Source of the DNA: a virus | Length of the DNA stretch: 64,000 bases | Virus record (IMG/VR): IMGVR_UViG_3300018005_000012 | Location: 27,435-91,434 of that record | Reading direction: 5' to 3' (one strand) | Shown: positions 7,602 through 64,000 of the stretch, piece by piece | How positions within the stretch are numbered: the stretch's first letter is position 1 | Layout of the letters: every line of letters starts with the position of its first letter | Translations under genes and position numbers: made by a program | The notes under the pieces: generated by a model | Told to the model about the DNA's origin: nothing | Seen by the model: the letters and a program-made list of their open reading frames with translations, nothing else | Database searches by the model: none

Positions 7602-8561
7602 ATGAACATATCCAGAAAGACAGCAACACGAGTTCTTCCTTCACTCATAGTCGCAACTCTACTTGTTCTGGCCATCATGATACCAGTAGTGTTGGCATGG
7701 AACGGAACCTGTAGCGAAACCTATCCATCAGACACTAACCTTGGCACAGCATCCGTATCAGCAAACGGAATTTATCATGTTGTGCAAGGAGACCCATTCA
7801 CAATTCCTAGTCTCACTGGTTGGTGTTGGAATCTGAATGTGAATGTGCCAACGAAGGGCACGACCACAACCACAGTAACTTCGCCTACCACTACAACTAA
7901 GACGATGCCGACTACAGTGACGAGCACCGTTACTGGCCCAACAACAACTAAGACCGCTACAACAACCCTTCCAGCAAATACAGTGACAAACACACAAACT
8001 TCTACAGAAACGCAAAGTGTCACTACAACTGAAACAGAGACCCTTCCGGTCACTACTACACAGACTCTTACACAGACTAGCACCGAAGTCCAGACTCAGA
8101 GTGTAACGCAAACTGAGACAACAACCGTAACTAACACGGTAACTGGTGAGGGTCAGAATGTGACTGAGACAGTAACAGAGACTAACACACAAGTTGTTCC
8201 TGTAGTAACGACTCAGACTGTTACAGAAACAACAACAGAGTTTGGTATTGGATTTGTTACTCAAGTGATAACAACGACTCTACCGAACCCGAACACTGTT
8301 ACTCAGACCACAACTCAGACTAACACCCAACCGACCACAGTAACGGCACAAGGCCCAACGATAACAACGACAGAACAGGGGCCGACTGGAACCGTAACAC
8401 ACACAGTCACACAAACTGTCACTCACACACCACTAACCACTCCTCCGCCCACTGGCAACTTCCCCATCTTAGGACTTCCGTTCCTAGTATGGCTTTGGGT
8501 ATTGGTGGCTGGCGGCTGTGGTATCGTCATAGGTTACACCGTCACACGGAAGAAACCGTAA
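7602..8561 (+). CDS. Thr-rich cell-surface protein (signal peptide, Thr stalk, C-terminal TM anchor)
   Basis: N-terminal hydrophobic signal, long T/V-rich repeats, TM helix followed by RKKP. Confidence 0.8.
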   Translation: MNISRKTATRVLPSLIVATLLVLAIMIPVVLAWNGTCSETYPSDTNLGTASVSANGIYHVVQGDPFTIPSLTGWCWNLNVNVPTKGTTTTTVTSPTTTTKTMPTTVTSTVTGPTTTKTATTTLPANTVTNTQTSTETQSVTTTETETLPVTTTQTLTQTSTEVQTQSVTQTETTTVTNTVTGEGQNVTETVTETNTQVVPVVTTQTVTETTTEFGIGFVTQVITTTLPNPNTVTQTTTQTNTQPTTVTAQGPTITTTEQGPTGTVTHTVTQTVTHTPLTTPPPTGNFPILGLPFLVWLWVLVAGGCGIVIGYTVTRKKP

Positions 8562-9802: not shown

Positions 9803-10510
9803 CTACAGCAATTCATGAGGCGACTTCAGAAAGACTTTCCAATCTATCGGAGTCGGTTTACGCTGGTAGAGTTGATAGAACTCATTGACGTAGTTCTCTG
9901 GATATTGGCTCCGTCTCAGAATCTCTTGAAGTGAGAGAGTAGGGTCTACTGGGATTTTCCATCGCACAGGGGTAGGATGCTCAGGGTCAACCGAGTGCTT
10001 GGTGAGGGTGATGCGACAAATCCTGTCCAGACTTATGAAGACTCGCTTATCGTGAAGATACTGAAGCCAAGTGGCTAGGTTCCAATAGAGTTCGTCCCGA
10101 TACTCACGCAACTCTTTGTAGGTAGCGGGAGTGATGTAGATGTAGAAGTGGAAACCCTTACCCGCACTGAAGAACATATCCACGTTGTTCCAGAACCGAG
10201 TGCCAAAGAACTTTGCCTTCTCCAAGACACTGGTGAAGGTATCACCATCTTTCACATCTATGTCTACAAAGAGTCGGTTAATCACCACTGCATCCTTCTG
10301 CTCTTGTGGCCACTCTTTGGTCTTAAGAGGGGCATAGAATGGGAAGTAGGCATCTTCAACCCCAATCAATCTATCTAATACATAACTATAATATTCGCTG
10401 ATTGTGCTCACATGGTATCTATACAACCCTACGTCTGCCGGAATCTGAGGCAGGTCTCTGTCCCAATAGGCTTTCGCCAGACTAAGTAATGGCATATTTG
10501 ATTGAGTCAA
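9803..10510 (-). CDS. archaeo-eukaryotic primase catalytic subunit (PriS-like)
   Basis: AEP motifs LFVDID, FSAGKGFHFY, RICRI. Confidence 0.8.
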   Translation of the reverse strand: MTQSNMPLLSLAKAYWDRDLPQIPADVGLYRYHVSTISEYYSYVLDRLIGVEDAYFPFYAPLKTKEWPQEQKDAVVINRLFVDIDVKDGDTFTSVLEKAKFFGTRFWNNVDMFFSAGKGFHFYIYITPATYKELREYRDELYWNLATWLQYLHDKRVFISLDRICRITLTKHSVDPEHPTPVRWKIPVDPTLSLQEILRRSQYPENYVNEFYQLYQRKPTPIDWKVFLKSPHELL

Positions 10511-11828
10511 GATTCATGGCCTTTATTTGTTCCACATAAGTCTGAGCCTGTTCAATTACATCGTCCACAATCTTCTCCAAGTCGCCCACCATCAGAACCT
10601 CCACTGCGGCCAATCTTGGCAGATTGTCCACCAGAGCACAATTCAAAGCCCCACCCCGAATGTGAGGGAAGGAGTGAGCGTAGTGGGCTTTGAGAAAGGA
10701 TGAGACTTCTATTATCTCACAATTCTCAATCTCCTCAAAAAGCCCTCTCTCATAGACAGGTGTATTGCAAAAGTCCCGAACCTTGTGATTGAACCAGAAC
10801 TTCCTCAGAGTCAGGGTTATCCTCTCTTCTAAGGCCCGATAGTCATCAATCAATCCCTTGTGCAAATCGCTGTCGTATCCCATATCTTGTAGCGGAGCAT
10901 AGTCTCCATATGCGAGAATCCCAAACCGTCTCCCCATTGCGTAACTATTTCTGCAAAGGAAGCCGAGAATATCTCTGAAGACGGAGACATGAGTTCCCTG
11001 TAGAGCGAGAGGATTGGCCGTCACTACAAAGGGACACGCACCTGTCACCGATAGTGTTGTGCCACCGCCAGCCACCGTTGCCCTTCCCGATTCCAGAAAG
11101 CCCAACAAGAATCCTGCCATGTTCTCTACCGTCTGGCTCTCAATCTGGTCTATGGCAAGCGGATAGTATTGCTCATGGAACAAGCCGTAAGCCTTGTCGT
11201 CAGTCCACTTGGCCGACCCTAGAAGGGTGTTCTTGGTGGCCTTATCAATCAGTCTACCAGCCAACTCGAAGAAGGTGCTCTTGCCAGTGTTGGGCGGGGT
11301 AATCTGCAACTCGTGAGGCTGATACCTCATGACATAGCCTCTTGGCAGGGTGGCCCTGTTAGCCAAAACCAGAGCAGGGTCTCTTGTGCAATTGTATTCC
11401 ATGATGCCCTTGATGAGATTGTTATACTCTTCGGTGGGTTTGTCAGCCACAACATCGAGCCACCTACCAAGAGTAGCGTCATTGAACTGATAGTCCGTCC
11501 CGAAAACATACATTCCCAAATCGTTCCATTCTTCGAGCCTTGGGTCGCCTCTCTGAATCTTATTCATGATGTAACCCTGCTCCTTCAGTTCAAAAATCCC
11601 ATCTAAATCCTTAATAGTCATCTCAGTGAGAGGTAAGGCAGACTTCTTGCTATGGATAACACTCTTGGTATCCACGATGTAGATAGGCGGAGTTATCACT
11701 GTCGGATAGGCCCGATAGAGTTTGGCCCCAACGGTAATGAAGATTCCGTTGTCAGTCTTCTCAATCTCCGACTTCTGATAGATGGGTTCGACTTGCTCAA
11801 ACGTATTGAGCACTTTGTTTTCGGACAA
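10482..11828 (-). CDS. MCM-like AAA+ replicative helicase
   Basis: PPNTGKS (Walker A), LAIDQIE (Walker B variant), LESGRATV, TANP, GRRFG; adjacent to the primase. Confidence 0.65.
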   Translation of the reverse strand: MSENKVLNTFEQVEPIYQKSEIEKTDNGIFITVGAKLYRAYPTVITPPIYIVDTKSVIHSKKSALPLTEMTIKDLDGIFELKEQGYIMNKIQRGDPRLEEWNDLGMYVFGTDYQFNDATLGRWLDVVADKPTEEYNNLIKGIMEYNCTRDPALVLANRATLPRGYVMRYQPHELQITPPNTGKSTFFELAGRLIDKATKNTLLGSAKWTDDKAYGLFHEQYYPLAIDQIESQTVENMAGFLLGFLESGRATVAGGGTTLSVTGACPFVVTANPLALQGTHVSVFRDILGFLCRNSYAMGRRFGILAYGDYAPLQDMGYDSDLHKGLIDDYRALEERITLTLRKFWFNHKVRDFCNTPVYERGLFEEIENCEIIEVSSFLKAHYAHSFPHIRGGALNCALVDNLPRLAAVEVLMVGDLEKIVDDVIEQAQTYVEQIKAMNLDSIKYAIT

Positions 11829-12613: not shown

Positions 12614-13594
12614 ATGAAATTCCTCGAATTAGACGAACCCATGATACCATACATCTGTATGGGAACCTGCGGTAAGAAGCAGGCCGGAAAGAGCCTCTAC
12701 TCTCGTGAGTTGGGCTATAAGATAATCAAAGAAGAGGGGGGCGAAATTCTATGGCTGTCCACCGAAGAGCCTACTGACTTCATGTTCACCATCGAGATTG
12801 AAGAGCATGAGGGGTGGGATAAGGTCTTCGCTAAGAAGTATGGTGTCGAACCTATCGTCCATTGGGAGTATCTTCCGAATGCGGAAGAGGTCATGCGATA
12901 CATCGGAGTGGATGGCAGAATCATCATTACTGAGGCAGAACCAGTCGAACCTAAACCTCTGAAAGACATAAAGGGAGAGACACCAGAAGCGAGAGCAAAG
13001 AGAGAAGAGGAAGTCAAGAAAGCGGCAAACGACAGACAGAAGGGCATCAAGTTGGAGTTCAAGACCATTAAGGTGGACACCGACCATTCGCCACTCGCCA
13101 AGATGCTGGAAGAGCACGACATCCGTTACATCGTTCTCGACTCCCTTACCACGCCATTCGACCAACTCCTAATAGGTGGGAGACAGAACTTCGGCATCAG
13201 AGCACAACTTGAGGAAGCCTTCCTGAACACCACTCAACAGTTGGTCGTCAAGAGGGGCAAAGTGACCAAAAAGAACATCTACGTCATGACCACCAATCAC
13301 ATCACCAACGACCCAACAGACCGTTTCACAAAACTGATGATTGAAAAGGAGTTAGTAGAGAAGGGTGGTGGGGCGGTGGGTTACAATCTCAAAGTCCTCT
13401 ACGGCTTCAAACCAAAGCAAACGCCTCACGGTTCGAGAGAGGTCTGGGTGATAAGGTTCCCCAACCTACCGGACTATGGCAAGATGTATAACCTACTCAT
13501 CACCAACAAGGGCTTCACCAAGACATCGAAAGACGAATTGAAGGATGTAAAAGAAGAGCAAAAGGCTGAGAGAAAAGAAGCGAAAGAAGCATGA
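12614..13594 (+). CDS. RecA/RadA-superfamily ATPase
   Basis: GKKQAGKS, ILWLSTE, YIVLDSLT, TNH, GGGAVGY; charged insertion of about 45 aa. Confidence 0.75.
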   Translation: MKFLELDEPMIPYICMGTCGKKQAGKSLYSRELGYKIIKEEGGEILWLSTEEPTDFMFTIEIEEHEGWDKVFAKKYGVEPIVHWEYLPNAEEVMRYIGVDGRIIITEAEPVEPKPLKDIKGETPEARAKREEEVKKAANDRQKGIKLEFKTIKVDTDHSPLAKMLEEHDIRYIVLDSLTTPFDQLLIGGRQNFGIRAQLEEAFLNTTQQLVVKRGKVTKKNIYVMTTNHITNDPTDRFTKLMIEKELVEKGGGAVGYNLKVLYGFKPKQTPHGSREVWVIRFPNLPDYGKMYNLLITNKGFTKTSKDELKDVKEEQKAERKEAKEA

Positions 13595-14456: not shown

Positions 14457-14647
14457 TTCCCTTCTATCTCTTAGTCAATCAAGTGGAACTTGCTCGTGCA
14501 AAACACGCCAAGTGCCCTAGTAAGCACTCGTGGAATTTAGAGATTGATACTTGCAAAGACTGTGGAATCTTGAGAGAAGAATACGAGGACTTCATCGTTG
14601 CAAAACTTACCTTAAGAGAGGCGTTTGGAATTGATACCATTCGATAG
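14453..14647 (+). CDS. LANxxEL-motif microprotein 4 (64 aa, Zn finger)
   Basis: ATGA overlap; MIPFYLLVNQVELARAK..C..H..CKDC. Confidence 0.6.
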   Translation: MIPFYLLVNQVELARAKHAKCPSKHSWNLEIDTCKDCGILREEYEDFIVAKLTLREAFGIDTIR

Positions 14648-16739
14648 TGCGACCTATACCACACAGAACGGGAAGGTCAAGATGAAGGTCTATAGGAATG
14701 GAGAGGTCGAACTCATAGACCCCACACCCATGCCCTACTGTTACGCCCCGGCCAAGTATGAGATTCAGACGCAAGCCAAGATGACGAGAACAGACTTCAG
14801 GACTTTCGATACGGGAGAGGGCGTGAAGAGATACACCTTCCCACAGCCTATGAACGTAAAGGCGTTCCGTTCATTCCAAGAGGCGAAGGGCATTCCTATC
14901 TATGAAGCCGACAAAAAGTATGTTGGAGTTTGGATGGCAGACAATGAGTTCGTATGCGATGACTATCCTAACCAAGCCGCATGGGACACAGAAGAAGACG
15001 ACTCGAAAGCCAAGCCCGACCCAGAGACGGCCAACGTTCCAATCACAGCCATAGGCATAGTCTATAAGGGCCAGAGGTATGCGTGGACTGGTATAGAGAA
15101 GGAGATTCTTAAGGGGGCAGTGGACTTCATAGTGGAGAACAAGATTCATATGTTGAAGGGTTGGAACACCCACTTCTGGGACGTTCCTTTCTTCGCCAAA
15201 CGACTGGCCTTTGCGGGTATCAAATTCGACTTCAGTTCCGTCAGGTTCCTAGACTTAGCCCTCTGCTATCGTTTCATGGAAAAGAACTTCCGAAGTCAGT
15301 GGTCGTTGGAGAAGGTAGGCAGACGACTGTTCAATGAGCAGAAGCCCTTCGTCAATACCAGACTCAGCACCCTACCGCCAGAGCAACTAAAGGAGAGGGT
15401 GTTGTGGGATGCGGAGATGACTAATAGGATAGACGATAAGAAGGGGTATACTGGGGTGGCTACACAACTGGCCAAGCAGAGCCATATCTTTCCAGACCAG
15501 ATATTCGGAATCCACCCCCTCAAGAAGTCCATCACCATTACTCCTGTCTTAGACCAATACTTTCTGCGGTATGCCCATAAGATTAACTATGTATTACCAT
15601 GTAAGTCGGGGTATAAGCAGAGGCCAAAATATACAGGAGCATGGGTCGAAGTCTTCGAGCAAGGGTTCTTTGAGGATGTGCTACAGTATGATGTAGACTC
15701 CCTATATCCCAACATCATCCTAGCGTATAAGTTGGCCCCATTGAACAGGTTCGAGTTGGTGGAACCTATCGTCAAAGACCTGCTTGCTGGCAAGCGAAAC
15801 GCTAAAGACGAGGTAGAGAGATGGGCTATGAAAATCACGGTCAATGCCCTGTATGGTCTCTTCGCTAGTTCTTACTACAGATTTAAGGCCGTAGAGGTGG
15901 CAGATGCTATAACCTACCACGGAAGGGACATCGTTACCCATACAGCAGAGTTCCTAAGAAGTATGGGTTATACGGTCTACTACATAGATACGGACTCTTG
16001 CTTCGTGAAGGGTAAGTTCGATGAGGCGGAGACTATAAGAGACCTGATGAACACTTATATTCAGAGGACATACAACGTGGACAATATCAAGTTCGGGTTG
16101 GAGAACGATTGGAGGCTGCTCGGATTCCCAAGAGGAGCCAAAGGAGAGAAGACCAAGAAGCGTTACTATGGTATAGTCCATGTCAACAAGAAGGGTGAAG
16201 TGGTGGACAAGTTTGAAGAGGCTGGCATGGAAGGGTTGCGTGGAGATTGGTGCGAGTTGGCGAGGAACGTGCAAGACGCAATCAAGAGGTTCCAAGTCAC
16301 AAAGGTTCCGAAGGAGAAGATGCTTGAGTTCTATGAGGATACGAAAGTCAACTTATACAAAGGACTCTACGACCCCCTTCTGGTTATGGAGAAACATATG
16401 GGGAAGGATGTCTCAGAGTATGGTCAAATGAAGAAGGATGAGAAGACGGGGAAGATAAGAAAGATGCCCACCCCACAACACGTTAAGGCTTTGCGAGATG
16501 CGATGGAACATGGATGGGTTCCCAACGATATGGTTCAGTATGGTGTGGTTCAATACTATATGTGTAGAGGAGCCATACCCAAACTGGTCAATCTAGTGAA
16601 GCAGGGTGAGATAGACTATGCTTGGTATTGTAGTCACCAGATAGACCCCATAGTGTGGAGACTTGGCCTCATCGAAGAGATGACCAAGTATAAGAAGGAG
16701 AAGGTTCAGCCATCAGACCAAACAACTCTTGTTTCTTGA
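14625..16739 (+). CDS. polB: family B DNA polymerase
   Basis: ExoI WDTE, ExoII GWNTHFWD, ExoIII WDA; polymerase motifs DVDSLYPNII, KITVNALYG, YIDTDS, KKRYYG. Confidence 0.95.
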   Translation: MELIPFDSATYTTQNGKVKMKVYRNGEVELIDPTPMPYCYAPAKYEIQTQAKMTRTDFRTFDTGEGVKRYTFPQPMNVKAFRSFQEAKGIPIYEADKKYVGVWMADNEFVCDDYPNQAAWDTEEDDSKAKPDPETANVPITAIGIVYKGQRYAWTGIEKEILKGAVDFIVENKIHMLKGWNTHFWDVPFFAKRLAFAGIKFDFSSVRFLDLALCYRFMEKNFRSQWSLEKVGRRLFNEQKPFVNTRLSTLPPEQLKERVLWDAEMTNRIDDKKGYTGVATQLAKQSHIFPDQIFGIHPLKKSITITPVLDQYFLRYAHKINYVLPCKSGYKQRPKYTGAWVEVFEQGFFEDVLQYDVDSLYPNIILAYKLAPLNRFELVEPIVKDLLAGKRNAKDEVERWAMKITVNALYGLFASSYYRFKAVEVADAITYHGRDIVTHTAEFLRSMGYTVYYIDTDSCFVKGKFDEAETIRDLMNTYIQRTYNVDNIKFGLENDWRLLGFPRGAKGEKTKKRYYGIVHVNKKGEVVDKFEEAGMEGLRGDWCELARNVQDAIKRFQVTKVPKEKMLEFYEDTKVNLYKGLYDPLLVMEKHMGKDVSEYGQMKKDEKTGKIRKMPTPQHVKALRDAMEHGWVPNDMVQYGVVQYYMCRGAIPKLVNLVKQGEIDYAWYCSHQIDPIVWRLGLIEEMTKYKKEKVQPSDQTTLVS

Positions 16740-47591: not shown

Positions 47592-48272
47592 CTAAGAGTC
47601 CTCTTCCGGCTCCTCAATCTTCGTCTCGAAGTCCTCAATCTTGAGAGGCTTCTTGGTCGTGTAATCAATCATTTCTTCTTCTGGCTTTATCCATCCCTTC
47701 TCAAGTTGGATAGACCTAGCCAAGAGATAGAAGATGGTGGCAATGGCCTTTGCACCCGCATTGTTAGCCGGGATACAGAAGTCTACGTCCTCGAAGGTGG
47801 CGTTGGTGTTGCAGATGGCTATCACTGGAATGCCGACATCTCCAGCCTCCTTCATGGCCCTTCGGTCTCCCCTTATGGCTTCGCCTATCTTCTTTGGTAT
47901 GCCATTGGTCGGGTCAGAGACAATCAACACATTGGCATCAATGTAGTATTGGGATTGGGCATTCGTGAGACAACCGGGCATGAAGCGATGGAAGACGGTG
48001 GGTATGAGAGTGGCCCTCTTGAATGCCGTAAGAGCGTTCTCGAACCTCGCATCGGTGGCATAGAGCACAGCACTTTCGGACTTGACTATGAACTTGCCAG
48101 CCGAGTCCAGTCGAGTGAGGATGGCGTTCACATCCAAGATGGGATTGCCGCTTGGAGCATATTCGGTAACAAATTGGGTCATGTCTCTAGTCACTGCTCC
48201 TCTGATTCCCAAGTGTATTCCGGTGGCCTTTAGAGGCTCTTCTGTGAGGGTCTTGGGCAGGATGTGACTCAT
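47592..48272 (-). CDS. rps2: archaeal-type 30S ribosomal protein uS2 homolog
   Basis: TGIHLG, RFMPGCLTN, LIVSDP, AMKEA..VGIPVIAICNT, VDFCIPANN, IFYLLAR, IEDFETK. Confidence 0.92.
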   Translation of the reverse strand: MSHILPKTLTEEPLKATGIHLGIRGAVTRDMTQFVTEYAPSGNPILDVNAILTRLDSAGKFIVKSESAVLYATDARFENALTAFKRATLIPTVFHRFMPGCLTNAQSQYYIDANVLIVSDPTNGIPKKIGEAIRGDRRAMKEAGDVGIPVIAICNTNATFEDVDFCIPANNAGAKAIATIFYLLARSIQLEKGWIKPEEEMIDYTTKKPLKIEDFETKIEEPEEDS

Positions 48273-48490
48273 TGCTTTTCACCTATCATCTCTAATATCA
48301 CATCAGGACAAATATGGTCATCTTGTGGCTTATACTCATTAGCCAACTTTTTAAGACCATTCAATTTTTCATGTGCCCAGAATTTGCATTCAGATTCGGG
48401 GACGGGTTTGCTTGAAGCAAAATCGAGCCAATGATATTCCAATTCGACTGCTTTCCCCATTGAGTCAATACACTTCTGGCAGTAACTCAT
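48269..48490 (-). CDS. hypothetical protein
   Basis: ATGA-coupled within the operon. Confidence 0.55.
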   Translation of the reverse strand: MSYCQKCIDSMGKAVELEYHWLDFASSKPVPESECKFWAHEKLNGLKKLANEYKPQDDHICPDVILEMIGEKQ

Positions 48491-48651
48491 TTCTTTGGTT
48501 CCACCCGCATTACATAAGTGTAGAAGTAAATCGTTGAACCGTCTTTGGTAGTCCCTTCGAGATGACCCCCTGCATATGGATGGCCTTCCGTTGAATCAGT
48601 CTCACACACCATCTCCAACTTTACTATCTCTACTCTTTCTCCTATTTTCAT
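48487..48651 (-). CDS. 54-aa hypothetical protein
   Basis: ATGA overlaps at both ends; MKIGERVEIVKLE... Confidence 0.55.
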   Translation of the reverse strand: MKIGERVEIVKLEMVCETDSTEGHPYAGGHLEGTTKDGSTIYFYTYVMRVEPKK

Positions 48652-49112
48652 GTCTTACTCGCCTCTACCGACTTGAGATAATCTATTACTTTAGGTAATA
48701 GTCCAGATTCTACCAGTCCCACAAGAACATTACACCGATTACAAATGATTCCTCGCACTTTATTGGTCTTATGGTCGTGGTCAACACATGGTTCTTTCTT
48801 ACCAACAAAATCTTCACCACAGATTTTACACTTATTGTGCTGATTCTGTATCATCTTCGTGACATCCTCTATCGTCAATCCATACTTTGTTTTGAAATGC
48901 CAACGTCTACTATCTAGTCTTGCCGCCTCAATGTGAGCATTCCTATAGTTCTGACTTCCTCTTTTCACCATCTCATAATAACCTTTATGCTCTTGCGACA
49001 AACAAGACTCCGAGGGCTTACGAGATGTTCCCCTTTTACAACTTTTACAGATAGAGCGATAGTATGTCTTTCCATTCTTGCTTACAAGTTTAACTGTGTT
49101 GTATTTGCTCAT
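48648..49112 (-). CDS. endonuclease VII-like homing endonuclease
   Basis: KYGLT, CKIC, VDHDH.T.KVRGIICNRCN. Confidence 0.85.
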   Translation of the reverse strand: MSKYNTVKLVSKNGKTYYRSICKSCKRGTSRKPSESCLSQEHKGYYEMVKRGSQNYRNAHIEAARLDSRRWHFKTKYGLTIEDVTKMIQNQHNKCKICGEDFVGKKEPCVDHDHKTNKVRGIICNRCNVLVGLVESGLLPKVIDYLKSVEASKT

Positions 49113-49115
49113 GTT

Positions 49116-50303
49116 CTATCCCTTAGAGAGTTCTACCGACCTCACCAAATCATCGAGTATGGCCTCAATGTTGTTGGTATGAGTCTTGGCAGAGCCAGCA
49201 GGCTTTATGCCACCACCTTCCATAATGGCTGGATTGGCACATCTGAAGACCCGCCCTATGTGGAGTTTGCCGTCCCTTCCACCCCTACCAGAGACATGAA
49301 CCCCATACTCAGGGATGTTGTTGATAACGAACCAAGTCTTATGGTTGGCGTTGCTCAACTTACTACATAGAGCAGAACCCATGTTCCACTTATGACTGAT
49401 GATGGTCACACCAAAGTCAGGATAGTCAAGTTGGGTATAGTTGCCTCGCTTCTCTACATCTCCCTTGTTCTTTCTATAGTTTACGGTAAGTTCCAGAAGC
49501 ATCTTAAGATTGGGACTTACTGTCCACCCACCCACGGCTTCTTTATTGACATACTCGTAAAAACCGAGCCAATTAGGAATCTGCTCCATCTCCTTCATCG
49601 CTTCATAGCAGACGGGTGGAGCCTTGTTGTATATCATGCGTCTAGGGTTGTGGAAGAGTTGGGCGTAAAACGCTAGGATGCTCCAATCGTAACTGCTATT
49701 CAGAGCCTTGGAAGCAAGCAAGCCCCGCATGGAAGGATGCTTGTCTAGAAGTTCTTGGAAGAGAGGGCCGCCCTCTTTGGTCTCGGTTGCGACATCTCCT
49801 TCTAATCCTATCAAAGCCCATTTGTCCATGTTGACCAAAGGCCAATTGAACTTCTTGACAAAGTTGTAGGCTATACCAGTGGTGCAGTTTTCGGTGGATG
49901 ATTCGTAGTAGAAGAAGGGCAGGTTGGGAAAGACAAACTTAGCCCTCACGTTCTCCAACATCTTGACAAAGATGCCAAAATTATCTTGGTCTTCCACTTC
50001 AGGGTCGGGTGGGTGGTTGTCTAGAATGATGGTATTGATGCCATTGGCTAAAAAGGCTGTGGCATAGTTCAACATATCCATGCCGCTTCCAATGTCCAGA
50101 ATGAAGACCGTTGCTGGCTTCAGGTCAAGAATGTCTGAGACATTAGAATCGGTCATCCCAAAGATGTCCCAGTCTTGCCACATGACAGTATGCGTGGCCT
50201 TAGGGTGCATCTGTGTAACGGCATTATGGATGATGCGAGTGGCCATCATTCCATCAGTATCTTCATCGCTGAAGATGACGGTATCAGTGTTTGTGTTGCT
50301 CAT
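49116..50303 (-). CDS. DHH-family RecJ/Cdc45(GAN)-like protein
   Basis: DEDTDG, ILDIG, ILDNH (DHH variant), SGRG, GGGIKPAG (DHHA1 variant). Confidence 0.72.
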   Translation of the reverse strand: MSNTNTDTVIFSDEDTDGMMATRIIHNAVTQMHPKATHTVMWQDWDIFGMTDSNVSDILDLKPATVFILDIGSGMDMLNYATAFLANGINTIILDNHPPDPEVEDQDNFGIFVKMLENVRAKFVFPNLPFFYYESSTENCTTGIAYNFVKKFNWPLVNMDKWALIGLEGDVATETKEGGPLFQELLDKHPSMRGLLASKALNSSYDWSILAFYAQLFHNPRRMIYNKAPPVCYEAMKEMEQIPNWLGFYEYVNKEAVGGWTVSPNLKMLLELTVNYRKNKGDVEKRGNYTQLDYPDFGVTIISHKWNMGSALCSKLSNANHKTWFVINNIPEYGVHVSGRGGRDGKLHIGRVFRCANPAIMEGGGIKPAGSAKTHTNNIEAILDDLVRSVELSKG

Positions 50304-50337
50304 ACCAGACCCTTAGTAACCAACCTATAAAAAGATT

Positions 50338-50523
50338 CTACTTCTTCTCGGAGAACGGCCCAATCTTCTGAATCTTGAATTGTTCAAAAAGACACTCTCT
50401 CATCTCCGTAGTGTCGCTTTTATGAAGTAGGCGTTTCGTCTTCTCGTCTTGAATGTAGTGATTGCGGTTCTGACAGTAATTCATCTCTGGAAAGTGTGGC
50501 TTGTTATTGTCTGAGGTTATCAT
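50338..50523 (-). CDS. hypothetical protein
   Basis: ATGA-coupled to the exonuclease gene. Confidence 0.5.
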   Translation of the reverse strand: MITSDNNKPHFPEMNYCQNRNHYIQDEKTKRLLHKSDTTEMRECLFEQFKIQKIGPFSEKK

Positions 50524-51176
50524 ATGCTCCTCCGCAACCCTTTGATGTAGGGTAGAAGTTTCTCATGGGCCTTCTCCAGAAGGATGACATCCCGCTTGTT
50601 GTGCTCCTGAATGTAGTCTCTGGCCTTCGGACTGAGTAGTGCTTGAGTCCAGATGTCTGGGTCAAGGTGCGTCTTAAGCCCTTGCAAGCCCAAGAGGTTG
50701 CCCACGTTCTCCAGTCTGTTTCGGCTCAACTTCAGTTTGGACTTCGCCACATAGTAGAGGTCGTGATGGATGACAGAACCATACTCTGGAAAGGCTAGGC
50801 CCCACTTCAAAGCACGAGTGCGTATGAAGGGAATGTCGTAACCCGTTCCGTAGTAGGTCACTACCATGTCGAACTTGAGCAAATCCACAAGAAGTTTCTC
50901 CATGAGAGGCTTGTCCAACCTCAATGCGTCTATGTCTTTCTGCTCAATTACATTTGAGTAGATAATGTCTTTGCCTCTTACCTTAAAGGCATAAGACAAA
51001 AGAACACCGAAGTCCGCATCCAAATTGGTCGCTTCAATGTCGAAGTAACCAACTCGAAAGTCGTTTTCAGTATTCTCTACGAACTTTGTCCAACATTCTG
51101 GATGTTCTGTTCCACGGTGGCCGTGAACACAATGCCAATGTTCGGCAACAATCAACAGTTTCTTTGGGTCTTTCAT
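50520..51176 (-). CDS. DEDDh 3'-5' exonuclease (RNase H-like/YprB-type)
   Basis: YFDIEAT, TYYGTGYDIPF, HNKRDV. Confidence 0.85.
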   Translation of the reverse strand: MKDPKKLLIVAEHWHCVHGHRGTEHPECWTKFVENTENDFRVGYFDIEATNLDADFGVLLSYAFKVRGKDIIYSNVIEQKDIDALRLDKPLMEKLLVDLLKFDMVVTYYGTGYDIPFIRTRALKWGLAFPEYGSVIHHDLYYVAKSKLKLSRNRLENVGNLLGLQGLKTHLDPDIWTQALLSPKARDYIQEHNKRDVILLEKAHEKLLPYIKGLRRSI

Positions 51177-53908: not shown

Positions 53909-54454
53909 ATGACCAAAGGACATGGATGGAAATCAAAATATGGTAGAAACTGGTATATTGAACATAGAGACGAGCAACTTTTGAAAATGAAAGCATGGCG
54001 AGAAGCAAATCCAGAGAAGATGAAAGCGGCTCATCAACGATGGAATGCTACTCATAAAGAACAGAACAAACAAACCCATAAAGAGTATCGTAAAAAGAAT
54101 CGAGACCGTGTGCGTGGATGGAAGAACGACTGGTATGAGAAACATCCAGAGAGGAAGAAAAGTATAGACAGAAATACTTACTTCAAAAGAGAACATGGTA
54201 TAACTCTAGAGACGTATGAGAGAATGATACAAGAGAGAAATAATAAATGCGATATATGCGGTAGCGAATGTAACAAGACAACTTCTTCTGGTAAGAAGTT
54301 AGAACCGTGTGTAGACCATAACCACAAGACAAATGAACTAAGAGGATTGCTTTGTACTCGCTGTAATCAAACACTTGGTAAAGTAGAGGACAACACCGAG
54401 TTGCTCTCTAAGATGATAGACTATCTCAATAGAACGAGAGGAAGCGGCAACTAA
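53909..54454 (+). CDS. endonuclease VII-like homing endonuclease
   Basis: CDIC, VDHNH..RGLLCTRCN. Confidence 0.85.
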   Translation: MTKGHGWKSKYGRNWYIEHRDEQLLKMKAWREANPEKMKAAHQRWNATHKEQNKQTHKEYRKKNRDRVRGWKNDWYEKHPERKKSIDRNTYFKREHGITLETYERMIQERNNKCDICGSECNKTTSSGKKLEPCVDHNHKTNELRGLLCTRCNQTLGKVEDNTELLSKMIDYLNRTRGSGN

Positions 54455-55363: not shown

Positions 55364-55659
55364 GCACACCAGCCCCACCTGAGAAAGAACACTATCCTGC
55401 ATTTGAAGATAGTGACATCGTAGTTCTAGAAGGGAAAACCATGAGTAAAGGTAATGGTTGGTGGCAAGCAGTTTTGTTAGTTAAGACTTATGGAAAACTT
55501 CAGTGTAAACTTTACCTTTGGCAAGAAAGGCAAGATAAAACAACAGGTCAAAAGGTTTGGAAACGAAAGCAAAGTTGGACTATTAATTCATACAATTGGA
55601 CAGATACACAAAAAGTCATTAACGAATTTCTAGAGAAGCGTAAGACGATGAAAATATGA
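55360..55659 (+). CDS. PC4-like ssDNA-binding protein
   Basis: KLYLWQ...WKRKQSWTIN..NW....I.EF pattern of the PC4 fold. Confidence 0.55.
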   Translation: MSTPAPPEKEHYPAFEDSDIVVLEGKTMSKGNGWWQAVLLVKTYGKLQCKLYLWQERQDKTTGQKVWKRKQSWTINSYNWTDTQKVINEFLEKRKTMKI

Positions 55660-56066
55660 ATCATACTGATTATACAAGAGAATGGGGTCGCAAACATCCT
55701 GAATCTAAGAAAAATTCACATCTAAAGAGTAGATACGGAATTACTCTTGACCAATTCAAAGAAATAGAATTAAAACAAAATGGTCTATGTGCGATTTGTG
55801 ACCAACCATTACCTGTAAATCCCAAGTTCCATCAGGTTGACCACAATCATCGAACAAATCATCTTCGAGGAATTTTATGTTTCTCTTGTAATCGTTTAAT
55901 CGGTGCTTGTGGAGAAAACTATCTTATACTTGCGAAGGCTATTGATTATTTGATGGATGACTCAGAAATGATACCTAACTGGGAGGAATGTAAGAAGATA
56001 ACAGACGAGTTCTTAGCCAAGAGAAAGACCGTGGTTTCAACAACTCCGGTGTATGAGAGGAAATGA
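55656..56066 (+). CDS. endonuclease VII-like homing endonuclease fused to a displaced PC4 C-terminus
   Basis: RYGIT, CAIC, VDHNH, RGILCFSCN; tail NWEECKKITDEFLAKRKT. Confidence 0.82.
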   Translation: MNHTDYTREWGRKHPESKKNSHLKSRYGITLDQFKEIELKQNGLCAICDQPLPVNPKFHQVDHNHRTNHLRGILCFSCNRLIGACGENYLILAKAIDYLMDDSEMIPNWEECKKITDEFLAKRKTVVSTTPVYERK

Positions 56067-59781: not shown

Positions 59782-61425
59782 CTATGATGAGAGCACTTGC
59801 ATCGAAGTCGTGACGGGGTAACTCTTCCCCGTTCCACCCGTCTGCTTAAGCGTGACCCTATAAAGGTTGCCCTTGTAGAAGGTCTTGCCGTGGAACCTGA
59901 TGAGGGGAGAGACTTGTGTTCCAGAGATAGTGGCCTGTTGGTAGATGTGGGAGTTGGAGTCATCAACAGCCGTGTATTCTCTAACAACCACCGTGTCTCC
60001 AGAGACCATGTTACGAAGGTCGAGAAAACTCTCCACTATGAAGTCTCCAGATTGGTTGCCTTCAGAATAGAGTTGTGCTATTTCAGTGGTTGAAAGACCA
60101 CGGTTGTAGAGACGGACTTCATCAATAGTGCCATCAAACATGAGACCACCATAAGTGCCTAATCTCCCAATTCCAAGACTTGTTGTGTCCTGATATATTG
60201 TTCCAGACCACGATAACGGGGTTCCTGCAACACCATCGAGATACAACGTTTCGGTAGACCCATTAAAAGTTCCAACTATGAAGTGCCAATTGGTATCAGA
60301 AATAGTAGCAGGGCCATATACTGATTTATCATGACTTCCATCTCCAAGGAGCATAAGAACATCATCACCAACAGTAAACTCTATCCAATAAGGCGAAGTT
60401 CCCGGCCCACTACCATTTGCCTTTCCAATGAAGATTTCTCTTGTTCCGCTTCGAGCACGTTTAATCCAAAGAGATAGTGTTATTTGTGAAACACTGAGAC
60501 TTGGAGAATATGGCACAGTCACATAATTTGAGCCACTGAAGTTTAGTGCGTTACCAAATTTTCCTATTGTCCATACTGGTGAACCTCCAAGTGTCCCTGT
60601 ATTAGCATATAGACTTGAATCGTAAGCATATGTTCCTGTTCCCTCATCAAAGTGCCAGATTCCTACAGCCCCACTTAAGGGCACAATATCTACAATGTCA
60701 GTTTCATTGTTGATGATGACAGAAGGAGCACCCTCGTTGTAGAGTTGTGCTGCCTCGGTAACAGATAGACCACGATTGTAGAAACGAACCTCGTCTAAAG
60801 TGCCAGTTATCCCATTTCCGTAACCAGTAGCATACGTTCCAAGATAGTAAGCCCGATTGGTTGATGGATAGACTGGTGTTGTCATACCAGCCGAAGAATA
60901 AGGTGCTCCATTACGATAGAAAGCGATTGTATTGGCAGAGTAATCTGCTACAATAGTCACATGAACCCAAGTATCATAGTATTCACCACTTGACCCAAAG
61001 AAATTGGAAGAACCAGCCCAAACAGGATTGACTCCGTTGGCATATTGGTAAATCAAATCATTTCCACTAAGATGAATCAGAACATATCCAACTGTGCCCG
61101 ATTGACTCGCATCACCAATGATTACTTGACCCCCCGGAGCATCTGTGTTAATCCAAAAACTGAAAGATATTGCCGAGTTAGTGAACGCAAGTGAGAGAGT
61201 TTGAACTCCTTGGTCGCTTGCCGTGACAAAGTGCAACGCCCTTCCATACACACCTTGAACCCATGTTGGTGTATTGAAAAGAGTTCCTGTTCTGCCCTGT
61301 CCACTAGCATCATAAGTGGTAGCCCCCGTTCCTTCATCCAAGTGCCACATCCCGACAAGACCATAGGTAAGAGCCGTTCCATTAGTGAGATTCTGGTCGG
61401 TCTTAGAGGCAACCGAGATTGTCAA
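59782..61425 (-). CDS. LamG/ConA-like double-domain virion protein, paralog A
   Basis: WH(L/F)DEGTG twice, DEVR.YNR twice; conserved C-terminal domain. Confidence 0.85.
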   Translation of the reverse strand: MTISVASKTDQNLTNGTALTYGLVGMWHLDEGTGATTYDASGQGRTGTLFNTPTWVQGVYGRALHFVTASDQGVQTLSLAFTNSAISFSFWINTDAPGGQVIIGDASQSGTVGYVLIHLSGNDLIYQYANGVNPVWAGSSNFFGSSGEYYDTWVHVTIVADYSANTIAFYRNGAPYSSAGMTTPVYPSTNRAYYLGTYATGYGNGITGTLDEVRFYNRGLSVTEAAQLYNEGAPSVIINNETDIVDIVPLSGAVGIWHFDEGTGTYAYDSSLYANTGTLGGSPVWTIGKFGNALNFSGSNYVTVPYSPSLSVSQITLSLWIKRARSGTREIFIGKANGSGPGTSPYWIEFTVGDDVLMLLGDGSHDKSVYGPATISDTNWHFIVGTFNGSTETLYLDGVAGTPLSWSGTIYQDTTSLGIGRLGTYGGLMFDGTIDEVRLYNRGLSTTEIAQLYSEGNQSGDFIVESFLDLRNMVSGDTVVVREYTAVDDSNSHIYQQATISGTQVSPLIRFHGKTFYKGNLYRVTLKQTGGTGKSYPVTTSMQVLSS

Positions 61426-63092
61426 TAGTTAATCACCTGCATTAGAGAGGTCACTGGATAACTCTTACCTGTTCCGGCAGTTTGCTTGAGAGTGACCTTG
61501 TAGAGATTCTTCTTGTAGTATATCTTACCGTGGAACCTCACAAGAGAAGCCACCTGTGCTCCAGAGTAGGTAGTTTGCTGATAGATATGAGAGTTAGAAT
61601 TGTCAATCGCCATATACTCCGTAATAACTGTCGTGTCTCCGGCAAGCATATTGCGAAGGTCGAGAAGCCCTTCCATCATGAAGTCGCCTCTCTCAAGACC
61701 CTCATTGTAGAGTTGGGCTATTTCACCAGTGGCAGACTGTCCTACAGATACTCCACCATCACTTAGAGCACGATTGTAAATCCTTGCTTCATCAATCCAT
61801 CCATCCCATCCCGGAGCACCACCCCAACAAATCCCTATATGCCAGTCATTACCTATGGTATCCGCATAACTCGTAACTGTTACCGACCCCTGACTTAGAA
61901 GTAAGATACCATCACAATAGATTCTAACTGTTCCTGCCTGATTAATTGCGGGTGCATCGTAAGAAGCCTCAATGTAATGCCATGCAGAATCATTCAAATT
62001 CTTGGAAACACTGTAATCGAAGCCATCTGCATAAGCACCTGCCTCAAAGTAAATAAGATGGTTCACACCATCATAGTAAAATCCGTTATTACCAGTAGCA
62101 CCTGTGCGTTGTATAATTGGCATATAACTGCCCGGAGTTCTAACCTTAACCCAGACGGCTATAGTTATTGGATTGGTTACATATCTAAGAGTGCCAGACG
62201 GGTCTGAGGTTTGAATGTAAGCAGGATTGTTTGGGCCAGTATAGGTGAACAGAGCACAATAGCCAAGTTTACCTACATCCCATCCTACGGTTCCTCCCGT
62301 ATTATTGTAAAGTGTTCCTGTGGCTCCAGATATACTTGCGTCATGAGCAGTCGTGCTCGTCCCTTCATCAAAGTGCCAACATCCAACCAAACCAGAAAGA
62401 GGCACAATGTCTATGATGTCATTCTCGTTGTTAATAACAACACTCTGATTATAGAGTTCCGCTACTTCAGTAGATGAAAGAGCACGAGTGTAGATACGAA
62501 CATCATCCATAGTTCCTTGATACCACTTATTACCATTGTCGTTTCCAATCATTAAACAATTCATTGATGCAGTAGAATAGACCGTTGTGCCATCTGATGA
62601 ACCATTTATGTAAAGGGTTATGTTGGAAGAATCAGAGACCATAGTAACAAAAGACCATTGACCATTAGTAAACGTATGACTCGACTCAAGAACATCACCA
62701 CCGCTACTTCTATAGTAAGCAAGATGATTTGTTGGTGAAACGAAGAATCCATTGCTACTATCTTGGGTTACTATACCAGACCAAGCACTCCTTAGAATTG
62801 GGTTTATCCATGCTGAAATTGTGAAACTTGTGCCCGAAGCGACTCCCGCTAAATCAACTGAGCAACCATTACCAGCACCACTTGTGAAGTTTAGTGCGTT
62901 TCCAAACTTTCCCGTTGTCCAAGTTGGCAAAGAATGAGTAGAACCAAGAGTTCCTATATTACCCTGACCACTGGTATCGTAAGCATAAATTCCTGTTCCT
63001 TCATCAAAATGCCAAAGCCCTACGATATTAGAGAGAATATCACCACCAATAGTGAGGTTCTGGTCGGTTTTTGAGCCTACTACGACTGTCAC
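61422..63092 (-). CDS. LamG/ConA-like double-domain virion protein, paralog B
   Basis: Same architecture as paralog A. Confidence 0.85.
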   Translation of the reverse strand: MTVVVGSKTDQNLTIGGDILSNIVGLWHFDEGTGIYAYDTSGQGNIGTLGSTHSLPTWTTGKFGNALNFTSGAGNGCSVDLAGVASGTSFTISAWINPILRSAWSGIVTQDSSNGFFVSPTNHLAYYRSSGGDVLESSHTFTNGQWSFVTMVSDSSNITLYINGSSDGTTVYSTASMNCLMIGNDNGNKWYQGTMDDVRIYTRALSSTEVAELYNQSVVINNENDIIDIVPLSGLVGCWHFDEGTSTTAHDASISGATGTLYNNTGGTVGWDVGKLGYCALFTYTGPNNPAYIQTSDPSGTLRYVTNPITIAVWVKVRTPGSYMPIIQRTGATGNNGFYYDGVNHLIYFEAGAYADGFDYSVSKNLNDSAWHYIEASYDAPAINQAGTVRIYCDGILLLSQGSVTVTSYADTIGNDWHIGICWGGAPGWDGWIDEARIYNRALSDGGVSVGQSATGEIAQLYNEGLERGDFMMEGLLDLRNMLAGDTTVITEYMAIDNSNSHIYQQTTYSGAQVASLVRFHGKIYYKKNLYKVTLKQTAGTGKSYPVTSLMQVINY

Positions 63093-64000
63093 GAGGACAT
63101 CACTTGCATTATTGAAGTGACAGGATAACTCTTTCCTGTGCCCACAGTTTGGTCGAGTGTGACACGATAGAGTTGGCTCTTGTTGGTGAGTTTACTATGG
63201 AAACGATAGACAGGGGCCGTCAGAGCACCAGTGAGAATGTCCTGTTTGTATATTTCCGAGTTCACGCCATCCGCAGAGACGTATTCTGTAATGGTTGAAC
63301 TATCTCCACTCACCATGTTGGTGAGGTCTACATAACTCTCTACAACGTAATCTCCAGTTTGAGCACCTTCGCTGGCGAGTTGGGCCACTTCTGCGGCTGA
63401 GAGCGCACGATTGTAGAAACGAACTTCGTCTATGGTGCCACCGAATGGGTCAGAACTAGGGTCGGTTCCTATCATGCCCGTTCCGGTGAGAGTTGTATTC
63501 AGTGCGATTCCACCACTAAGAGAGCCTGTGTAACCAGTTGACCCAATGTAAATCGTGACTGTTGTGGCACTCGCCACGTAAGTGAATCCAACCAAAGTCC
63601 AAGTGTTCAAAGGCACAGTTGCGGCTGTTCTCCAATCGTTGCCATCTGCATAAAATTGGAGAGCACCCGAGCCATAGAGCAACAGATAGACACTGTGGTT
63701 GGTGCCATACGTTCCGTATCCAAAGACTGCCGGATTTCCTGCGGGTGGGTAGGCCGTCAAGTAAACCCACGCAAACATACTTCTTGCGGCAGAACCAGTA
63801 GGCAAATTTGAATCGGAAAATGAGACGTATTGATTGCTTGCGGCCACAAATTGTAACGCCTTTCCGAATCTACCAGTCACCCACGTTGGAGTGTGAACCA
63901 ACGTTCCGGTGCGGGCATACTTACTAGCATCATAAGTGGATGTTCCCGTTCCCTCGTCTAAGTGCCAGATTCCAATGGCTCCGTTGAGAGGAACGATGTC
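63089..64000 (-). CDS. LamG/ConA-like virion protein, paralog C (5' partial)
   Basis: Frame open to the window edge (DIVPLNGAIGIWHLDEGTG); same C-terminal domain. Confidence 0.85.
   Translation of the reverse strand, partial: DIVPLNGAIGIWHLDEGTGTSTYDASKYARTGTLVHTPTWVTGRFGKALQFVAASNQYVSFSDSNLPTGSAARSMFAWVYLTAYPPAGNPAVFGYGTYGTNHSVYLLLYGSGALQFYADGNDWRTAATVPLNTWTLVGFTYVASATTVTIYIGSTGYTGSLSGGIALNTTLTGTGMIGTDPSSDPFGGTIDEVRFYNRALSAAEVAQLASEGAQTGDYVVESYVDLTNMVSGDSSTITEYVSADGVNSEIYKQDILTGALTAPVYRFHSKLTNKSQLYRVTLDQTVGTGKSYPVTSIMQVMSS

Follow-up and report, generated by a model that had tools for sequence, protein, structure and literature searches.

A virus-encoded paralogue of archaeal ribosomal protein uS2 with a candidate remodelled docking face

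Introduction

Why should a virus carry its own copy of a universal ribosomal protein, and what could that copy do to the ribosomes of its host? Viruses tend to carry exchangeable ribosomal proteins, some of which are incorporated into ribosomes (PMC6375957). As of 2023, the only ribosomal proteins known in archaeal viruses were eL21 (as L21e) and bL19, named in papers of 2021 and 2023 (PMC8651126, PMC10541130). The question is raised here by an open reading frame in 64 kb of DNA (hereafter the window, meaning the whole stretch analysed), which belongs to an IMG/VR virus record of 91,434 bases whose completeness is estimated at 79%. An original prediction, made from the sequence alone, described the frame as a remodelled uS2 and knew of no other uS2 in an archaeal virus. 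Its observation is confirmed by our analyses, and its interpretation, a reprogramming of ribosomes towards leaderless viral mRNAs, is partly supported.

Results

The open reading frame at 47592..48272 on the minus strand encodes 226 aa and is a genuine, intact, virus-encoded paralogue of archaeal uS2. The protein scored 62.9 bits against Pfam Ribosomal_S2 (PF00318), above the cut-off of 26.1, and 131.7 bits over residues 14-201 against NCBIfam TIGR01012 (uS2_euk_arch), below the equivalog cut-off of 211.5. By the TIGR01012 cut-off it therefore ranks as a homologue and not as a certified functional equivalent. The best sequence matches among solved structures were the uS2 proteins of Pyrococcus, Thermococcus, and Sulfolobus ribosomes (E about 1e-26). 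An AlphaFold2 model built with 76 homologues had a mean pLDDT of 92.1, and the top Foldseek matches of this model were the archaeal uS2 chains 1VI5, 9QF4, 9FHL, and 6TMF (target-normalised TM 0.83-0.93, rmsd 1.6-2.2 Å). Model and structure search thus both give the protein the uS2 alpha/beta fold, the same as that of cellular archaeal uS2 (PF00318, TIGR01012), and the claim of a full-length archaeal homologue is borne out. The viral protein is also similar in length to the solved archaeal chains (about 193-215 residues). It shares an acidic tail with cellular archaeal uS2, and a C-terminal IEDFET motif that is found in the uS2 of Nitrososphaerota and Bathyarchaeia. It differs from cellular Thermoproteota uS2 in being at most 40% identical and in scoring below the equivalog cut-off, and its gene lies in a viral replication-type operon, whereas archaeal uS2 genes have cellular surroundings.

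An insertion of about 12 aa after SDP had been proposed, and it is real. When aligned with HMMER, the uS2 proteins of Pyrococcus and Thermococcus have a 12-residue gap across from viral T122-G135 (47868..47909, minus strand), and the place is empty in all 89 cellular Thermoproteota uS2 sequences. The loop is modelled with confidence by AlphaFold2. Basic residues in or near it (K127, K128, R134, R137, and R138) give it a net positive charge; N123, G124, P126, and K128 are at least 94% conserved within the viral family, and within the insert pN is lower than pS. The basic loop is therefore a property of viral uS2 that no sampled cellular copy has. The motif changes noted in the original prediction are likewise found in the alignment with cellular uS2. 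The first G of GRFxPG, 99% conserved in cellular uS2, is H in the viral protein (HRFMPG), and NN[RK]GR reads NNAGA, with the loss of the two basic residues of NNRGR. The NNAGA change alone is no sign of lost function, because functional human uS2 also has NNxGA (NNKGA, in peptide G).

At 68 positions a residue is kept in at least 85% of the cellular uS2 sequences; the viral family keeps 36 of these, partly keeps 13, and has changed 19. Cellular G95, D157, N158, R172, R174, and W182 are all changed in viral uS2. Conversely, N43, P44, F77, N79, N123, G124, P126, K128, R138, N157, A158, and Y182 are conserved in the viral family only.

The changed positions were mapped by aligning the viral family with E. 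coli S2. In that protein a zinc pocket is built from H18, D188, D204, and D205; it faces the solvent at the interface of S1 and S2, in the cleft that separates head from platform, and S1 docks on S2 (PMC4288201). H18 aligns with viral I23 (T in cellular uS2), D188 with N155, D204 with N171, D205 with A172 (R/K in cellular uS2), and R208 with K175, and the insert follows a strand that ends just beside the positions aligned to the pocket. The face rebuilt in viral uS2 is thus homologous to the one that carries the zinc pocket and docks S1 in E. coli S2 (Byrgazov et al. 2015, PMC4288201), although the acidic zinc ligands of the E. coli protein are N in archaeal uS2. Since the changed positions and the insert align around this pocket, the main viral changes surround one face and are not scattered. 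A review places archaeal uS2 where the mRNA exit chamber ends (PMC7531240), as the original prediction had it, and by sequence alignment the viral changes and insert appear to ring a site beside the mRNA exit that corresponds to an exposed docking pocket. How the loop is oriented on the archaeal 30S is deduced from the bacterial structure by way of the same alignment.

We give a probability of roughly 0.55 to the reading that viral uS2 takes the place of uS2 on the host 30S subunit and brings with it a docking face, close to the mRNA exit, that is rebuilt and more basic. As a peripheral ribosomal protein, viral uS2 would still fold and bind like uS2, and would occupy the uS2 site of host 30S subunits during infection. 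One face would be altered, namely the pocket at the C-terminal edge of the beta-sheet, to which the conserved, positively charged 12-residue loop is added and around which the flanking residues (cellular T23, D157, N158, R/K172, R174, and Q138) are altered too. Judging from the position of the changes at the counterpart of the E. coli S1-docking site, the docking surface of the modified subunit close to the mRNA exit and the 16S 3' end would differ from that of the unmodified one. This surface could serve mRNA or a viral factor, or it could act against a host factor. We infer the incorporation into ribosomes as well as any effect on translation. Two features count against this reading: the 19 changed positions could weaken or abolish binding to the host 30S, and the protein stays well below the equivalog cut-off.

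The first gene of the operon in which uS2 lies, at 49116..50303 (minus strand), encodes a RecJ-like DHH phosphoesterase that matches phrog_2484 with 38 bits and Pfam DHH with 22 bits, the latter below the cut-off. D13, D15, D17, D70, and the triplets D95-N96-H97 and G363-G365 are invariant across five viruses, and we take these acidic residues and triplets to be DHH-type and DHHA1-type motifs. A TATA-like box, TTTTTATA (50326..50333, minus strand), lies 22 nt upstream of the DHH start and is the putative promoter. From DHH to uS2 the genes are joined throughout by 4-nt overlaps or a 3-nt gap, and between uS2 and the next gene, close to the uS2 end, lies another TATA-like box. Because of these couplings and flanking boxes, uS2 is the last gene of an operon headed by DHH, as originally proposed. 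Between the two genes lie about 840 bases with three open reading frames (48269..49112, minus strand), each coupled to the next by a 4-nt overlap: an EndoVII-family nuclease (48648-49112; PF02945, 65 bits) and two small frames (48487-48651 and 48269-48490). In four relatives DHH and uS2 are next to each other: L003 and L004 have a 4-nt overlap between the end of DHH and the start of uS2, and L005 and L006 have the pair side by side as well. The EndoVII frame and the 54-aa frame had no match in L003-L006, and the sole match of the 73-aa frame among them sits downstream of uS2 in L004. Judged by these sequences, the three frames look like a mobile homing-type cassette. The window holds three PF02945 EndoVII-family nuclease genes, within 48269-49112, 53909-54454, and 55656-56066. 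On the other side of DHH, at 50520..51176 (minus strand), is a stand-alone PolB-type 3'-5' exonuclease subunit (PF13482, 52.5 bits; phrog_403, 70.9 bits) that is syntenic in L003-L006. It is encoded far from the PolB gene (14625-16739), and a comparable split of PolB and exonuclease has been described for a Bathyarchaeia virus (PMC10541130). With a homing-type EndoVII nuclease, a RecJ-like DHH protein, and a PolB exonuclease subunit around it, uS2 does have the viral neighbours that had been claimed.

In the predicted operons uS2 is always co-transcribed with the RecJ-like nuclease and not with translation genes. This would suit a protein that works off the ribosome, as a decoy or adaptor that does not bind the 30S and uses the uS2 fold and the remodelled pocket to bind something else; a host assembly, hibernation, or quality-control factor, a defence sensor, or a viral partner could be the target. 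The same alternative would account for the 19 changes at cell-conserved positions, for the conserved signature of the family's own (N43, P44, F77, N79, R138, N157, A158, and Y182), and for the score below the equivalog cut-off. What it leaves unexplained is that the whole fold and 36 conserved core positions, including the IEDFET motif, have been kept, and that the changes are concentrated on one face instead of being spread over the protein. We regard it as a possibility to be taken seriously, if an unlikely one. A complex prediction for the DHH protein and viral uS2 gave a score of 0.00, which speaks neither for nor against binding.

A more specific form of the preferred reading, replacement of uS2 on the 30S with a rebuilt face, is that viral uS2 replaces the host protein to make specialised ribosomes, the conserved basic loop at the counterpart of the bacterial S1-docking pocket recruiting viral mRNAs or a viral factor, or excluding a host factor, and thereby biasing translation towards the virus. 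We hold this particular form to be unlikely.

To place the viral protein among its relatives, 1.84 billion representative proteins were searched. Only seven matched below E 1e-30, after which the scores fall from 150 to 113 bits, the level of cellular proteins. The best cellular matches in species-representative genomes came from Bathyarchaeia and Nitrososphaerota (34-40% identity). In a maximum-likelihood tree of 22 insert-bearing and 89 cellular sequences, obtained by a quick search and containing several long branches, all 22 insert-bearing sequences fell on one side of a branch (SH-aLRT 98), and the 17 core viral sequences grouped together (SH-aLRT 99). The insert-bearing sequences thus form one clade apart from the 89 cellular ones, and are closest to sequences labelled Nitrososphaerota. 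The viral clade is joined by five more distant uS2-like proteins (P0021, P0045, P0046, P0047, and P0052), in which the loop has other inserts, about 6 to 25 residues long; P0047 is encoded on a 162-kb contig. Used as single-protein queries against viral contigs, P0047, P0021, and P0046 gave no matches, and an alignment-based scan of viral contigs for uS2 returned the known relatives only.

Pairwise dN/dS of uS2 across related viruses was 0.10-0.16 (five pairs), in the same range as for six neighbouring genes (0.07-0.24). The gene is therefore under purifying selection. Because of these ratios, the excess of pS over pN in the insert, and the deep separate clade, relaxed selection and recent capture are excluded, and on this sequence evidence uS2 appears to have been captured long ago by the virus lineage and kept since. 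Purifying selection would also be expected if the gene merely supplied extra uS2 for the assembly or repair of ribosomes after host shutdown, leaving their behaviour unchanged, and this is how auxiliary genes and virus-encoded ribosomal proteins are generally explained (PMC6375957). However, a spare part should stay near the host protein, whereas viral uS2 shares no more than 40% identity with any cellular uS2 and has a conserved loop and residues that are found in viruses only. We find this explanation distinctly unlikely.

The translation signals of the virus were examined next to those of related viruses and of archaeal loci. The uS2 ATG overlaps the upstream stop codon as ATGA, and direct reading of the sequence confirmed the Shine-Dalgarno (SD)-like AGGTGA reported 6 nt before it (48279..48284, minus strand); most relatives have GGTGA or GAGG 6-9 nt upstream of their uS2 starts. 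SD-like 5-mers at a spacing of 3-11 nt precede 13 of the 88 predicted genes, uS2 included, where 2.7 would be expected at random positions. In the 60 nt upstream of the starts in the window there are 30 TATA-like 7-mers, all at 16-31 nt and 22 of them at 22-27 nt. Related viruses have the same spacing pattern, and Nitrososphaerota loci give a hint of it (10 of 29 TATA-like matches at 22-27 nt). In TACK archaea first cistrons are usually leaderless and internal cistrons SD-led. As judged by these motifs, the first cistrons of the virus are probably leaderless or nearly so, which upholds for them the earlier claim of leaderless viral genes, its internal cistrons are probably SD-assisted, and in its start signals the virus looks like its probable hosts.

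Several further motifs were seen in the window. A strong shared promoter-like box, CTTTAAATAG or TTTATATAG, stands at a fixed 22-27 nt before starts, for example upstream of 43411, 44570, 26367, 56953, and 5621, and many genes are paired divergently across a short bidirectional intergenic region (30-86 nt). A second motif, AAGGGTA or AAGGGA, is found 5-8 nt before several starts, often just after the TATA-like box (genes 7602-8561 and 12614-13594 on the plus strand; 10482-11828, 49116-50303, 48648-49112, and 50520-51176 on the minus strand). It matches the anti-SD imperfectly, and may be a ribosome-binding or regulatory element specific to the virus or its host.

According to the original prediction, viral uS2 takes the place of host uS2 or titrates its partners, and ribosomes thereby come to prefer leaderless viral mRNAs. 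The TATA-like boxes 22-27 nt from the starts of viral first cistrons are in its favour, as is the finding that leaderless translation in E. coli profits when bS1 and uS2 are lost (PMC7531240). The effect that the prediction had ascribed to uS2 deficiency is thus confirmed by the review, but it is reported there for bS1 and uS2 lost together. SD-like motifs precede viral genes as well, that of uS2 among them, and a switch away from SD-led starts would hurt the virus's own genes. Moreover, S1 docks on S2 in E. coli, and we know of no S1 in archaea. The probable hosts are likely to use leaderless mRNAs too: the mRNAs of TACK archaea are often leaderless and the host-type loci give a hint of the spacing, so the leaderless state gives no clear distinction between virus and host. 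A shift of translation towards leaderless viral mRNAs is therefore weakly founded, and we consider it very doubtful.

The gene lies in a bona fide virus genome and is no cellular contamination, as indicated by structural genes, the IMG/VR record, synteny, and bridging contigs. The genome encodes a portal protein, a gpA-type large terminase (TerL), a tail tube protein, and a DNA polymerase of family B (PolB), as well as a HerA/A32-like ATPase, an ERCC4 nuclease, and several EndoVII-type nucleases. Homologues of uS2 with 53-84% identity are found on four other IMG/VR contigs (105.7, 105.3, 37.5, and 106.9 kb) and on three metagenome contigs, and around them the gene order is kept: PolB exonuclease subunit, RecJ-like DHH, uS2, and then the same small genes. 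DHH and uS2 thus keep their synteny on at least four further virus contigs (37-107 kb) as well as on three metagenome contigs. The uS2 stretch is present in many peat and wetland metagenome runs, with no RNA run listed among those that contain it, contigs from independent peat runs that are not flagged as the source bridge both gene ends with zero differences, and the GC content of the locus is unremarkable. We found nothing in favour of an assembly chimera, which is ruled out by the same placement in the other virus contigs and by the bridging of both junctions, or of a decaying passenger recently taken from a host, which is ruled out by dN/dS, the deep monophyletic clade, and the ordinary GC content, and we give either practically no credence.

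There are no tRNA genes in the 64-kb window, and Pfam scans of 50 of the larger open reading frames of the 91-kb record revealed no other translation genes. Three consecutive genes at 59782-63901 have Laminin_G_3 (concanavalin-like) domains and probably encode tail fibres or receptor-binding proteins. Elsewhere the same record encodes an RlaP-like nucleotidyltransferase of RNA-repair type (PF10127; L170:11427-12041, outside the window) and a class-II glutamine amidotransferase-like protein (L169:10124-11797). The virus probably belongs to a tailed lineage of about 100 kb infecting Thermoproteota of peat and soil, with Nitrososphaerota or Bathyarchaeia as hosts.

Discussion

We found no published viral uS2, and among the searchable papers none that combines uS2 with archaeal viruses. 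A tblastn search with viral uS2 against 50,697 GenBank phage records gave no match, no PHROGs family matches it, BFVD holds no match at E 0.001 or better, and the term uS2 is absent from the text of the 2019 survey of viral ribosomal proteins (PMC6375957). Like the phage proteins bS21, bL12, bL9, bL31, bL33, and HPF described in that survey (Mizuno et al. 2019, PMC6375957), viral uS2 is encoded by a single gene in a tailed virus, is under purifying selection, and is peripheral. In contrast to them it is archaeal, whereas the host-assigned examples of the survey come from bacterial phyla, and it is large, at about 226 aa against 67-106 aa for most of them. It is also far more diverged from its cellular homologues and forms an old, virus-only clade. 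Archaeal tailed viruses with one ribosomal protein gene have been described before, namely the hafunaviruses with eL21 (PMC8651126) and a Bathyarchaeia virus with bL19 (PMC10541130), but there the protein is a different one and belongs to the other subunit.

The viral ribosomal proteins known so far are mostly small, of bacterial type, and found in phages. Here, a universal small-subunit protein of 226 residues appears to have long been kept by an archaeal virus lineage, with the surface next to the mRNA exit rebuilt. If viral uS2 enters host ribosomes, it would be a natural and easily handled case of the modification of archaeal ribosomes by a virus, and a probe for the function of the uS2 pocket in archaeal and eukaryotic-type ribosomes. 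Should the proposal of specialised ribosomes prove true, the virus would be the first to make a specialised ribosome in archaea by way of a universal core protein. The probable hosts are peat Nitrososphaerota or Bathyarchaeia, which are important to the nitrogen and carbon cycles and about whose viruses little is known.
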